64,000 bases of DNA, from positions 300,710-364,709 of the forward strand of contig LCIO01000001.1 in the NCBI GenBank assembly GCA_001001115.1, written 5' to 3'. The DNA comes from Candidatus Wolfebacteria bacterium GW2011_GWA1_44_24 (lineage in GTDB: Bacteria > Patescibacteriota > Minisyncoccia > UBA6257 > UBA9933). A model generated the notes under the pieces. The model ran no database searches, was not told the DNA's origin, and saw only the letters and a program-made list of their open reading frames with translations. This document shows, in pieces, positions 7,017 to 58,755 of this stretch (its first letter is position 1; each line of letters starts with the position of its first letter). A program made the translations under genes and the position numbers.

Positions 7017-7724
7017 ATGGACCAAAACGATAAAAACAACAATTATCTTTTGCCGATTAGCATCATTGTCGCGGCGCTTTTGATCGCCGGCGCTTGGATT
7101 TATACGGCCGGCCTGAAAAATGTCGGCAACGGGAAAACACCCGAGAAGCCGGCTGAAACTTCTCTTAATATCGAAAATGTCGCAGCTGTTAATTCAAACG
7201 ACCATATTCGCGGCAATCTTGAGGCTGAAGTGAAAATCGTGGAATTTTCCGATTTGGAATGCCCGTTTTGCAAATCTTTCCATTCAACGATGAAACAAGT
7301 AATGGAAGGATACGGCGATAAAGTGGCTTGGATATATCGCCATTATCCAATAGACCAACTTCATCCGAAAGCCAGAACTTCGGCTGTCGCTTCCGAGTGC
7401 GCGGCGGAATTGGGCGGCAACGAAAAATTCTGGGCTTATGTTGACCGTTATTTTGAGATTACGCCTTCCAATAATCAAATTGACCTCGCTGAACTTCCGC
7501 AAATCGCCCAGGACATTGGTTTAAACCGCGTTCAATTTGAGAATTGTCTTAACAGTGGCCGACATCAACAGTTAATTGAAGAGCAGATTCAAGACGCTCT
7601 TAATTCCGGCGCCCGCGGCACGCCTTACAGCATTGTTATTTCCAAAGACGGTAAAAAATATCCGATTTCCGGCGCTTATTCTTTTAATGACGTGAATCTT
7701 ATTATCAACGAGGCGCTGAAATGA
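7017..7724 (+). CDS. DsbA-family thiol:disulfide oxidoreductase, membrane anchored
   Basis: N-terminal TM segment and the thioredoxin-fold active site CPFC. Confidence 0.8.
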   Translation: MDQNDKNNNYLLPISIIVAALLIAGAWIYTAGLKNVGNGKTPEKPAETSLNIENVAAVNSNDHIRGNLEAEVKIVEFSDLECPFCKSFHSTMKQVMEGYGDKVAWIYRHYPIDQLHPKARTSAVASECAAELGGNEKFWAYVDRYFEITPSNNQIDLAELPQIAQDIGLNRVQFENCLNSGRHQQLIEEQIQDALNSGARGTPYSIVISKDGKKYPISGAYSFNDVNLIINEALK

Positions 7725-9050: not shown

Positions 9051-9200
9051 GTGAAAGTAATCAGCATAATCTTCTTTTTCTTGTTTCTGGTCTTTTGGGC
9101 GTTTACAAAGATAATTTTTCCGATGAACTGGGAAATAGACGAAATGACCCGTTGTGGGAGAAAGATCTTGGAAAAATCAAAAAAGCAAAAAGGAGGATAA
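9051..9200 (+). CDS. Tiny membrane protein (hypothetical)
   Basis: GTG start preceded by aaggagga. One hydrophobic helix, ISIIFFFLFLVFWAF. Confidence 0.35.
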   Translation: MKVISIIFFFLFLVFWAFTKIIFPMNWEIDEMTRCGRKILEKSKKQKGG

Positions 9201-9470
9201 ATGATAAGACGGGAAAGGAGAGTGTTTAACAAGAAGAGGATATTCCGGTCTTTTGTCGTTTTTGCTGCTGTCTTTGTGGTGGTGATGGTGATGGCATTTG
9301 CTATCGCCGTTCTTGCAAAGAACAGCTGGGGGAAGGAAGAAAGGAATGAGTGTCTGAAGTGGCAGAAAGAAGCAAGGGAAATACAGGGGTACTTTCTTGC
9401 CAATTGGCAGGCGGAGCAGTGCGCTCGCTGGGGCGTAAAAATAAACGCGCCGATAAAAGCTGATTTCTAA
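9201..9470 (+). CDS. Small TM-anchored protein (hypothetical)
   Basis: SD aaggagga immediately upstream. One TM helix (FVVFAAVFVVVMVMAFAIAVL) and 2 Cys in the ectodomain. Confidence 0.45.
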   Translation: MIRRERRVFNKKRIFRSFVVFAAVFVVVMVMAFAIAVLAKNSWGKEERNECLKWQKEAREIQGYFLANWQAEQCARWGVKINAPIKADF

Positions 9471-9478
9471 AGAAGGGG

Positions 9479-9688
9479 GTGATTAAAGTGAGCACTCAGA
9501 TAGAGAAAGAGGTGGAGATAAAAACGAACGAAGGGTTCAATCTGGTTTTTCACAAAAAGACAGGCAACGAGATTGGTCTTCATCCCTTTTCCCGCCCCAA
9601 AGACAAACCCGATGCGATTCTCTCCGCCATGGTTGTTGAAGGGGCTCGTCGGAAGGCCGAAAAACTGTTTTTGTATTCAAGGGGGTGA
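9479..9688 (+). CDS. Small hypothetical protein ending at an in-frame TGA
   Basis: SD gaaggggg. The likely true start is the GTG at 9488. Ends ...LYSRG-TGA. Confidence 0.4.
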   Translation: MIKVSTQIEKEVEIKTNEGFNLVFHKKTGNEIGLHPFSRPKDKPDAILSAMVVEGARRKAEKLFLYSRG

Positions 9689-9901
9689 TTTGGAATAACG
9701 ACAACGATAGAGTGGACTCCCCAGGGATTTGTTTGTTCGCATTGCGGTACGTCAAATCTCGATAAGCACGACAAATGCGGCAACTGCGATGAAAATCCGT
9801 ATGAACCACTGTCAAAAGACGCTTTGTTGACGCGAGAAGAGTTATCGACTTTTCGGGCCGTAATTAGGAAAGATAAAGTTATTGTGAGGCTTTCTGATTA
9901 A
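9689..9901 (+). CDS. Zinc-ribbon reading frame with no start codon, in the same frame as 9479..9688 across the TGA
   Basis: 70 stop-free codons: FGITTTIEWTPQGFVCSHCGTSNLDKHDKCGNCDENPYEP... No in-frame ATG/GTG/TTG occurs before or within the Zn-ribbon (CxxC...CxxC); the first in-frame candidate is a TTG at codon 47. Confidence 0.4.
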   Translation, partial: FGITTTIEWTPQGFVCSHCGTSNLDKHDKCGNCDENPYEPLSKDALLTREELSTFRAVIRKDKVIVRLSD

Positions 9902-9919
9902 ATCAGAAAGCCTCTTTTT
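9886..9919 (+). terminator. Rho-independent terminator of the small-ORF cassette
   Basis: Perfect 14-bp inverted repeat gaggctttctgatt / aatcagaaagcctc followed by ttttt. Confidence 0.7.
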
Positions 9920-9927
9920 ATTCTCCT

Positions 9928-17632: not shown

Positions 17633-17965
17633 ATGCTTAAAAAAAATATTGAACAATTTAATAAAAAGCTTGAAAAAGAAAAGATGGAAATTAGGGAAGA
17701 ATTGGAAAAGCACAAAAAAATGCCCCGGTTCGGTTCCGAAACCACCGATCCCGACCAGGAAACCGACGAATCCGAAGAATACGGCAATCAACTTTCCGTC
17801 GTTCAAACCTACAAAGAACGGCTGGCGGACATTGATTCGGCTTTGAAAAAAATCAAAAACGGCAAATACGGCGTTTGCGAAAAATGCAAAAAGGAAATCT
17901 CCTTAAAACTTCTTAAAATCGATCCGGAATCAAGAATGTGCCAGGAATGCAAAAAGAAGGCGTGA
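17633..17965 (+). CDS. DksA/TraR-family C4 zinc-finger protein
   Basis: GKYGVCEKCKKEI...CQECKKK (CxxC-17-CxxC) after a coiled-coil region. Confidence 0.75.
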   Translation: MLKKNIEQFNKKLEKEKMEIREELEKHKKMPRFGSETTDPDQETDESEEYGNQLSVVQTYKERLADIDSALKKIKNGKYGVCEKCKKEISLKLLKIDPESRMCQECKKKA

Positions 17966-33863: not shown

Positions 33864-35177
33864 ATGTTTCAGCGGATTCTCTTATATTCCAAATTGCCCG
33901 AGATGCGGCTTTTTTGGTTTTTTTTGCCGCTGATTTTGGTTATTTTCGGCATTGAGATTTTTTATCTTCCCGTTTTTTTTCTTTGGATAAGCGCAGGTTT
34001 TTTCATTGTTTTGGCGGCAATTATTTTGGTCAACAATCTTCGTTTGGCGCGGTCAAATTTGGAAATCAAAATCGAGCGGAATGAATTGTCGGGAATCATT
34101 TTTGCTCTTCGCGACGGCATTATCGCTTACGATTCGGATTTCAAAATTCTGCTTTTTAACAAAGCCGCGGAATCGATTTTCAACTTAGCGGCGGCAAATG
34201 TTCTGGGTCGCCGTCTTTCGCCGGAACAAATCAGGGAACCGCATTTCAATTTGTTGATTTACGTCCTTTTTCCGTCGCTGGCGCCGGTTGTTATAAAACG
34301 TTCGGAAGTCGGCGCCGAGCCCCAGATAATCGACCTTTCTTTTGACGAGCCGAGAAAAGAACTGCGGGTGATTACCAATAAAATCATCGACCCCAACGGC
34401 GCGCTTTTGGGATTCGTCAAGGTGGTCAGTGACCGCACCCGAGAAAAAGAGATGTTGCGTTCAAAAAACGAATTTATCGCTACCGCCGCCCACCAGTTGC
34501 GCACGCCCTTGACCGGCATCAATTGGGCCCTTGAAACGTTGGTTGCCGAGTCGCTTCCCGAAAATCAGAAACAGATAGTGAAATCGGGATTACAAACATC
34601 CGCTTTTTTGTTAAAAATCGTCAATGATTTGCTTGATGTTTCAAAAATCGAGGAAGGCCGGTTCGGTTATGATTTTGAAAAAACGAATTTCATCGATTTC
34701 GCTGAGAAAATTATTCTGGAAGCTGAAAAGATAGCCGATGAAATCGGCGTTAAAATTTATTTTCAAAAGCCAGTCGAGCCGGTTGAAATCAATATCGATT
34801 CCCAGAAATTAGGCATTGCTCTGTACAATCTTTTGGATAACGCCATCCGTTATAATGTCAAAAACGGCGAAGTGATTGTTAGCGTCGAAAAACTTCGAGA
34901 CAAGCCCTATATTCAGGTAAGCGTCAAAGACACGGGCATCGGCATCCCGCGAGAAGATATTGAAAATATATTCGTCAAATTCTTCCGGGCTGATAACGCC
35001 GTGAAATCGGCTCCTAACGGCAGCGGTTTGGGGCTTTATATCGTTAGGAATATTATCAAGCGTCACGGCGGAGAAATTCGGGTTGAATCGGAATTGAACC
35101 GTGGCAGCGTTTTTTATTTTACTCTGCCGATTGACCCGGAACTGATTCCGCCTAAAGAAACGGCGTATGACGAGTGA
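33864..35177 (+). CDS. Sensor histidine kinase (2 TM, PAS-like, HisKA, HATPase_c)
   Basis: H-box AAHQLRTPLT, N-box LDNAIRYN, G-box GSGLGLYIV. Confidence 0.85.
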   Translation: MFQRILLYSKLPEMRLFWFFLPLILVIFGIEIFYLPVFFLWISAGFFIVLAAIILVNNLRLARSNLEIKIERNELSGIIFALRDGIIAYDSDFKILLFNKAAESIFNLAAANVLGRRLSPEQIREPHFNLLIYVLFPSLAPVVIKRSEVGAEPQIIDLSFDEPRKELRVITNKIIDPNGALLGFVKVVSDRTREKEMLRSKNEFIATAAHQLRTPLTGINWALETLVAESLPENQKQIVKSGLQTSAFLLKIVNDLLDVSKIEEGRFGYDFEKTNFIDFAEKIILEAEKIADEIGVKIYFQKPVEPVEINIDSQKLGIALYNLLDNAIRYNVKNGEVIVSVEKLRDKPYIQVSVKDTGIGIPREDIENIFVKFFRADNAVKSAPNGSGLGLYIVRNIIKRHGGEIRVESELNRGSVFYFTLPIDPELIPPKETAYDE

Positions 35178-58430: not shown

Positions 58431-58443
58431 ATCTTTGATTTAG

Positions 58444-58755
58444 TGGAAGCGAGCGGAATTGAACCGCTGTCCAAAGATTATCGGAAAAAATTTCTACAGG
58501 CTTATCCGCCTTTGGCGGAGATTTTTGCTCCTTATTTGTCTCCGGATATCGGAGCGTTTTTCCAGAGTTTGCCCAATTATTACACCGGTTGTCCCTTATT
58601 AGGCGTCAGGGGCCGATGGCTTCGGCGATTTATGCAAACGCCGGAGCAAAAGCCAAATTTTTGTTGGCAGTTATTTTGTTTTGATTGGATTAATGAGACA
58701 ATCGGCTCAGCCTGCGGTTTTATCGGAAAAATCTTTGTCGAAGCCTAGCGCTCCC
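58444..58755 (-). ncRNA. ssrA: tmRNA (ssrA)
   Basis: 5' GGGAGCG pairs with 3' CGCUUCC-A, including a G3:U wobble. T-arm AGCGG-UUCAAUU-CCGCU. Tag frame GCC AAC AAA AAU UUG GCU UUU GCU CCG GCG UUU GCA UAA encodes ANKNLAFAPAFA (58668..58630). CCA is not encoded. Confidence 0.85.

Follow-up and report, generated by a model that had tools for sequence, protein, structure and literature searches.

How the zinc ribbon encoded immediately downstream of an in-frame stop codon is translated is the question raised by a locus of Candidatus Wolfebacteria bacterium GW2011_GWA1_44_24. In the 64,000-nucleotide stretch of contig LCIO01000001.1 analyzed here (termed the window), the forward-strand frame 9479..9901 contains one internal stop, TGA at 9686-9688, and continues thereafter for 70 sense codons up to the TAA at 9899-9901. 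We refer to the small open reading frame (ORF) ending at the TGA as ORF66 and to the gene in the stretch that follows as the ribbon gene. An earlier note on this DNA had described the same single TGA, stop-free stretch and TAA and quoted the ribbon peptide, all of which were reproduced when the ORFs were re-read, and had reasoned that the ribbon could be made only by readthrough or recoding of the TGA, unless the gene had been inactivated recently. What follows the TGA is a genuine small gene that stands alone and is conserved in Parcubacteria/Patescibacteria, and no readthrough extension of ORF66. Furthermore, the restriction to readthrough or recoding overlooked near-cognate initiation, as an ATA at 9695 sits behind an extended Shine-Dalgarno (SD) sequence. 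We are modestly inclined to the view that the ribbon gene is translated separately from this AUA.

The ribbon gene (9695..9901, forward strand, with 9695 as the putative start) encodes a protein of 68 amino acid residues (ITTTIEWTPQGFVCSHCG...RLSD) followed by TAA. No gene was called here in 10 assemblies; standard gene callers overlook it because it lacks ATG, GTG and TTG starts. Its coding score was +9.0, against -35 in the other frames. A word-index protein search with the ribbon as the query returned zero matches, and the family was recovered only by an exhaustive HMMER search of 1.84 billion representative proteins, which yielded 27 homologues with a best E of 1.3e-15. The homologues are nearly all 58-73 residues in length, and the match begins at their residues 2-12. 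They share a W-x-P-x-G lead-in, four invariant Cys, an N-P-D turn, a C-terminal L-T-x-E-Q-[LF]-x-x-[LF]-R-A helix and, often, a basic tail. The zinc-binding core of the window's protein (9734..9787, forward strand) consists of C-x2-C (9734-9745), x3-N-x6 and a second C-x2-C (9776-9787), and its four Cys were invariant in an alignment of 24 sequences. Thus, the zinc ribbon recognized in the earlier note is borne out by homology and the invariant Cys, but its CxxC-x11-CxxC spacing has to be corrected to CxxC-x10-CxxC, as follows from the cysteines at residues 16, 19, 30 and 33 of the downstream stretch. When the window's sequence was left out of the family hidden Markov model (HMM), the ribbon still scored 97.6 bits (E 1.4e-32, as a single-sequence test). 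The ribbon shows no visible decay: its W-P-G, N, LT-EE and FRA motifs have been kept, as have all four Cys.

The family was defined by an alignment (A2) that was too divergent for scanning loci, and a reduced version (A3) was used for the locus scans. In the scan of metagenome contigs, which was confirmed by tblastn and independent of gene calling, 24 ribbon loci were detected, approximately 14 of them distinct; the window's own contigs are not among these loci. All of the distinct loci start with a canonical codon, mostly ATG, with GTG in L097 and L099 and TTG in L112, placed 2-14 codons before the conserved Trp (residue 3-15 of the respective proteins). Strong and often extended SDs resembling AAGGAGGTGAT were found at the corresponding place in the homologues, such as AAAGGAGGTGATtccATG in L102, AAGGAGGTGAattATG in L093, AAGGGGGtttattATG in L096 and AAAGGAGGTGGTGGGTAAGTG in L097. 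The spacers measure 4-10 nt, counted from the GGAGG core, and the upstream stop is often within or beside the SD. The closest relative retrieved, P0003 (62% identity), resides in a locus that shows synteny with the window; the gene order common to both is DsbA-like, glyA and ribbon, convergent with Mur ligase (MurE), M23 peptidase and RuvA, and then S20 and PNPase. The earlier note had proposed to look for homologues bearing a sense codon in place of the TGA. None was found; all homologues recovered are independent small genes with their own SDs and proper starts, an outcome that the earlier note had named as telling against its reading, and no recovered homologue was fused to an ORF66-like domain. 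In the glyA neighborhoods of 80 GTDB genomes (46-67% glyA identity), no homologues of the ribbon gene, ORF66 or ORF89 (the gene preceding ORF66; see below) were found, and the scan of viral contigs found no relatives of the ribbon.

The nucleotide sequence itself appears reliable. The 770 bp around the TGA site were 100% identical in eight independent groundwater assemblies, which derive from different samples and assemblers. Two further haplotype or scaffold variants retain both the TGA and the ATA; the second haplotype, distinguished by one single-nucleotide polymorphism, has both codons. In all, at least nine independent groundwater assemblies share this sequence. A sequencing or assembly error is thus an unlikely source of the TGA, given the eight identical assemblies and the variants that carry it. 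The glyA protein adjoining the locus was found on 24 contigs, and the species representatives nearest by glyA showed 64-67% identity in this protein. The sole divergent locus, L006 2768-2887 (ANAN16-1 scaffold_75086), has unrelated sequence and a run of N in place of part of the ribbon gene; this replacement is a scaffolding artefact and no true variant. The in-frame juxtaposition of ORF66 and the ribbon gene is unremarkable by itself. Adjacent genes are expected to share a frame in one of three cases, and 59 cases of same-frame stops between long open stretches were counted in the window. It is in its homology that the downstream stretch goes beyond chance, with the E of 1.3e-15 against 1.8 billion proteins and the 97.6-bit score with the independent HMM.

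The evidence for the start site is as follows. The SD before the ribbon gene, AAGGGGGTGATT at 9679-9690, extends over 11-12 nt and contains the TGA. The same 12-mer at 9473-9484 is the extended SD of ORF66, whose GTG start follows 8 nt after the GGGGG, and apart from these two sites the motif GGRGGTGAT is absent from the window. With an assumed canonical 16S 3' tail, the predicted energies of the SD:anti-SD duplex were -17.9 kcal/mol for the ribbon gene and -19.9 kcal/mol for ORF66, while those of other SD-led genes were approximately -12 kcal/mol. The proposed near-cognate start, ATA at 9695..9697 on the forward strand, is in frame, lies 9 nt after the GGGGG core and is the sole near-cognate codon at a spacing compatible with the SD. 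Translation from this ATA would begin with (M)TTTIEW and place the conserved Trp at residue 7, as compared with MPTKEIKW and MTTHQLRW in homologues. The first canonical start within the ribbon stretch is a TTG at codon 46 (9824), beyond both CxxC motifs. The earlier note was right that no ATG, GTG or TTG lies before or within the ribbon, and its numbering of the TTG as codon 47 holds only if the TGA is counted.

The SD signal is in use in this genome: of the 21 AAGGRGG sites, 14 are followed by an ORF of 45 or more codons with a canonical start, as opposed to 17% for permuted motifs. Strong AAGGAGG sites were found before the small ORFs after glyA and before a few other small genes (for example, 41835, 42059, 44636 and 54719, as well as 60415 and 60721 on the reverse strand). 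The use of SD appears to be confined to a subset of mainly small genes.

We propose that the extended SD of the ribbon gene, AAGGGGGUGAUU, contains the UGA of the species-specific ORF66 by happenstance, and that initiation would occur at the in-frame AUA, which the GGGGG core precedes by 9 nt. The long helix between SD and anti-SD would offset the weakness of the AUA codon, and translational coupling may help, with ribosomes that finish at the UGA being released only 6 nt upstream of the AUA. The ribbon protein would consequently be produced at a lowered but real level. Three parts of this scheme are inferred, namely use of the AUA itself, a canonical anti-SD in the host and a contribution from coupling. 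In operons, an upstream stop within or next to the downstream SD, as in the GGAGGTGAnnnnATG arrangement, is a common form of translational coupling. The UGA of ORF66 within the ribbon SD conforms to this arrangement, and the homologous loci likewise bear TGA or TAA before or inside the SD. The ribbon gene differs from usual coupled genes in that its start is not ATG, GTG or TTG.

Near-cognate starts of this kind have precedents, including the AUU start codons of E. coli infC and pcnB. In Staphylococcus aureus, infC, ccpN and citZ (AUA) and cvfC1 (AUU; a 61-residue putative zinc-finger protein) carry extended SDs, and the non-canonical starts tested in this bacterium gave approximately 10-30% of the expression from AUG (PMC13009471). 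In E. coli, an AUA start gives 1-2% of the output of AUG (10.1101/063800). The ribbon gene resembles the S. aureus cases in the near-cognate AUA as a start, in the long SD complementarity (11-12 nt) at a suitable spacing and, as with cvfC1, in the small size of the product and the attenuated translation to be expected. On the other hand, the non-canonical codons of the S. aureus cases are conserved among relatives and initiation there was mapped experimentally, whereas the ATA of the ribbon gene occurs in only one species among the homologues found and is known from sequence. The ribbon gene further differs in that its host is an SD-poor parcubacterium and in that its SD also holds the stop codon of the upstream ORF.

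Several observations weigh against initiation at the AUA. AT-rich leaders with no SD prevail among the genes in the window, and an anti-SD motif was detected in only 48% of the 16S genes of Parcubacteria (PMC9297842). An ATA start was found in none of the homologues, all of which start canonically, the closest relative available being 62% identical. By our estimate from codon frequencies, an in-frame near-cognate codon falls at an SD-compatible spacing by chance in approximately 10-20% of cases. Finally, a very recent mutation from ATG to ATA would look the same as a functional AUA. The sequence data fit both alike, and recent loss of the start codon is the main alternative to the use of the AUA. 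According to this alternative, a canonical start, most simply ATG at 9695, was lost by a G-to-A change, and what remains is an effectively silenced young pseudogene with no further damage. The ATA is then a derived, exceptional state, as indicated by the canonical starts of all homologues; G-to-A is the expected direction of mutation in an AT-rich genome; and the content of the locus is fluid, with an ORF89-like gene in L114 but not in L091 or L116, and with ORF66 restricted to one species. Nevertheless, there is no second lesion in 68 codons, all residues conserved in the family are intact, the extended SD is perfectly preserved, and the state with TGA and ATA is fixed across the sampled assemblies and two haplotypes. 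Even an AUA behind an extended SD retains 1-30% of the output of AUG in the published data, so that the ribbon protein is probably still made and absolute silencing is unlikely. We consider start-codon loss a tentative explanation, appreciably less probable than initiation at the AUA. The recently inactivated gene of the earlier note survives only in this form, and not as a once unbroken gene that a TGA has split.

The shared frame and the lack of a canonical ribbon start are also what would be expected if some ribosomes decoded the UGA at 9686 as Trp, Gly, Cys, Arg or selenocysteine (Sec) to give an ORF66-ribbon fusion of 136 residues. Members of the family with two units are known (two ribbons in the 130 residues of P0004 and an N-terminal half ribbon in P0003), and, given the weak collinear likeness of ORF66 to the ribbon, the fusion would resemble such a tandem protein. 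[quoted passage not shown] Nonetheless, we judge readthrough to be very improbable. None of the recovered homologues has a sense codon at the UGA position or an ORF66-like domain before the ribbon, and a shared frame, which arises by chance in one of three cases, is common in the window. The region 9670-9760 folds at -19.9 kcal/mol against a mean of -20.6 kcal/mol for shuffled sequences (z = 0.22), meaning that there is no stable structure or one like a selenocysteine insertion sequence (SECIS), and an Rfam search of the UGA region for SECIS at E <= 10 gave zero matches. The UGA is not near the Cys ligands, and UGA-U is an efficient context for termination in E. coli. This UGA thus differs from Sec and readthrough systems in lacking a SECIS-like fold, fused homologues and a Cys/Sec position, and its conservation is explained by its being part of a sequence with SD function. 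The UGA-sense codes 4 and 25 occur in some Patescibacteria, but genome-wide reassignment is rejected here because TGA ends 20 of the 55 long ORFs in the window at the expected lengths, including the ATGA at which the DsbA-like gene and glyA overlap. The TGA stops that the earlier note listed at 7722-7724, 17963-17965 and 35175-35177 are real, and its view of a local anomaly with no change of the genetic code stands. A frameshift of the prfB type at AGG GGG UGA was also rejected, as a stop is met after 3 codons in the +1 frame and after approximately 26 in the -1 frame, short of the ribbon in both.

Two readings besides these concern the stop and what follows it. Ribosomes may reinitiate with no defined near-cognate start, for instance at ACG 9698 or ATA 9707, or the ribbon frame may be untranslated and have survived by chance. 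The stop is only 6 nt from the proposed start, such proximity is common in the family (TAAGTG in L097, TAATTG in L112 and TGAattATG in L093), and the N-terminus from ATA 9707 would match some homologues in length (MKW in L096). This ATA, the only in-frame near-cognate codon besides the one at 9695, is, however, 21 nt from the SD core, beyond the 4-10 nt of the family, and the untranslated version is at odds with the strong homology, the intact motifs and the conserved synteny. Altogether, we hold this pair of options to be unlikely. The other reading is that ORF66 and the ribbon gene are diverged tandem duplicates and that the UGA in the shared SD acts as a switch, at which most ribosomes would terminate, a few would reinitiate at the AUA to yield the free ribbon, and a minority would read through to yield a two-unit fusion similar to P0004. 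If true, the UGA would serve a CPR bacterium as a device for programmed recoding or for coupling; we give this scenario very little credence.

The possible duplication draws on a 21-nt direct repeat on the forward strand, of which copy 1 (9464..9484) and copy 2 (9670..9690) are identical at 17 of the 21 positions and perfectly so in the last 12, AAGGGGGTGATT. These 12 nt are the SD of ORF66 in the former and that of the ribbon gene, including the ORF66 TGA, in the latter. The copies are spaced by 206 nt, each immediately 5' of a start, and 207 nt (69 codons) separate the two starts. A weak collinear likeness is also seen between ORF66 and the ribbon, namely MSTQIE/(M)TTTIE, EGF/QGF, NLVFHKKTGN/NLDKHDKCGN and DAILS/DALLT. 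The direct repeat and this weak similarity hint at an old tandem duplication or at an insertion that duplicated its junction; the former, with loss of the cysteines from the upstream copy, is possible. BLASTP between the two proteins gave an E of 0.02, and shuffling gave p of 0.006-0.1 depending on gap costs and 0.12 at the DNA level. With the family HMM, 206 of 2000 shuffles scored equal to or better than ORF66 (p ~0.1), and the hhalign probability was 0.2%. ORF66 is thus not established as a paralogue of the ribbon, the results of these tests being marginal.

No Pfam or NCBIfam family covers the ribbon protein, for which every match to these databases fell below the threshold. The best Pfam match was DUF7573 (PF24458) with 19.6-19.7 bits against a cut-off of 30.2; DZR (PF12773) scored 15.5 bits against 27.3, and there were other weak generic matches, such as Zn_Ribbon_1 (PF13240) and L40e-like models. 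The AlphaFold model (mean predicted local distance difference test score of 75, and approximately 84 over the zinc core) comprises a zinc knuckle plus ribbon and then a helix at 47-58. The nearest PDB folds found by Foldseek were NZF and RanBP2-type fingers, which were non-significant (E > 0.4). The spacing C-x2-C-x3-N-x6-C-x2-C agrees with the RanBP2-type consensus. The resemblance to RanBP2/NZF, DZR, Zn_Ribbon_1, zf-RanBP and archaeal L40e is a generic zinc-ribbon likeness only; the family has its own W-x-P-x-G lead-in, C-terminal LTxEQ helix and basic tail, unlike RanBP2/NZF and generic ribbons. The basic tails of many members suggest that the family may bind nucleic acid. Additional units were seen in some members: a second ribbon unit in P0004 (130 residues), an extra N-terminal half ribbon (CPCG...EEC) in P0003 (L116 1685-1960) and an extra N-terminal Cys cluster (CPACGC...CGC) in P0019 and P0025. 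Unit duplication therefore appears to be recurrent in this family.

The ribbon protein belongs to a newly defined family of small zinc ribbons conserved beside cell-envelope and core genes in Parcubacteria. It is a conserved protein invisible to standard gene callers and unannotated in every assembly of this Candidatus Wolfebacteria genome, and an in-frame stop followed by a seemingly startless conserved domain can be mistaken for recoding. Most likely, the type of initiation site proposed here is one already known, in a host lineage that has been little studied. If the AUA is used, extended SDs combined with weak start codons would be known beyond Firmicutes, in an SD-poor member of the CPR, in which initiation is barely characterized.

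We turn to the ORFs upstream of the ribbon gene. ORF66 (9488..9688, forward strand) comprises 66 residues from a GTG start to the TGA, is species-specific and was called by gene finders in all assemblies. Its coding score of +18.6 is typical of real genes. The earlier note placed its end correctly at the TGA, but GTG 9488 is a likelier start than GTG 9479 because the latter falls within the SD of ORF66 itself. A word-index protein search for ORF66 matched the same species only, and ORF66 was not present in any related ribbon locus examined.

ORF89 (9201..9470, forward strand), also called in all assemblies, encodes a small protein that is anchored in the membrane and has two conserved Cys. A protein of identical sequence carries the annotation hypothetical in Candidatus Wolfebacteria GW2011_GWA2_42_10 (groundwater Parcubacteria/Patescibacteria), and the word-index search matched the same species only. 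ORF89-like genes lie directly 5' of the ribbon gene in L097, L099, L106 and L114, which makes ORF89 a partner conserved upstream of this gene across related loci. ORF89 and its relatives in L097 and L114 are single-pass membrane proteins that share a conserved C-L-K/Q-x-Q-K ... Q/T-C and the end G-V-x-I-[ND]-A-P. Genes of this type are located near the gene for a DsbA-like thiol-disulfide oxidoreductase. L091, L116 and L114 are near-identical, with the same glyA of 437 residues and the same ribbon gene of 91 residues. Between these two genes, an ORF89-like gene (79 residues) is present in L114 and missing from L091 and L116, pointing to strain-to-strain variation in the content of the locus. 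Further upstream, an uncalled hydrophobic ORF of 49 residues (MKVISIIFFFLFLVFWAF...) at 9051-9200 on the forward strand begins with GTG behind an AAGGAGG SD and ends in a TAA that overlaps ORF89's ATG (TAAATG). It scores poorly for codon usage, and whether it is a genuine gene is uncertain.

On the other side of the locus, an intrinsic terminator (9886..9924, forward strand) consists of a perfect, GC-containing 14-bp hairpin (9886-9914) that overlaps the TAA of the ribbon gene and is followed by a T-run, in agreement with the earlier statement that the terminator comes only after the ribbon. The convergent ribbon and Mur-ligase genes flank it, and a similar hairpin is found directly 3' of the stop of the orthologue in L116. 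Neither tRNA genes nor rRNA were found in the window. The sole structured RNA family detected in it was transfer-messenger RNA, the gene for which (58441-58755, reverse strand; 136.5 bits with Rfam) encodes the tag peptide ANKNLAFAPAFA.

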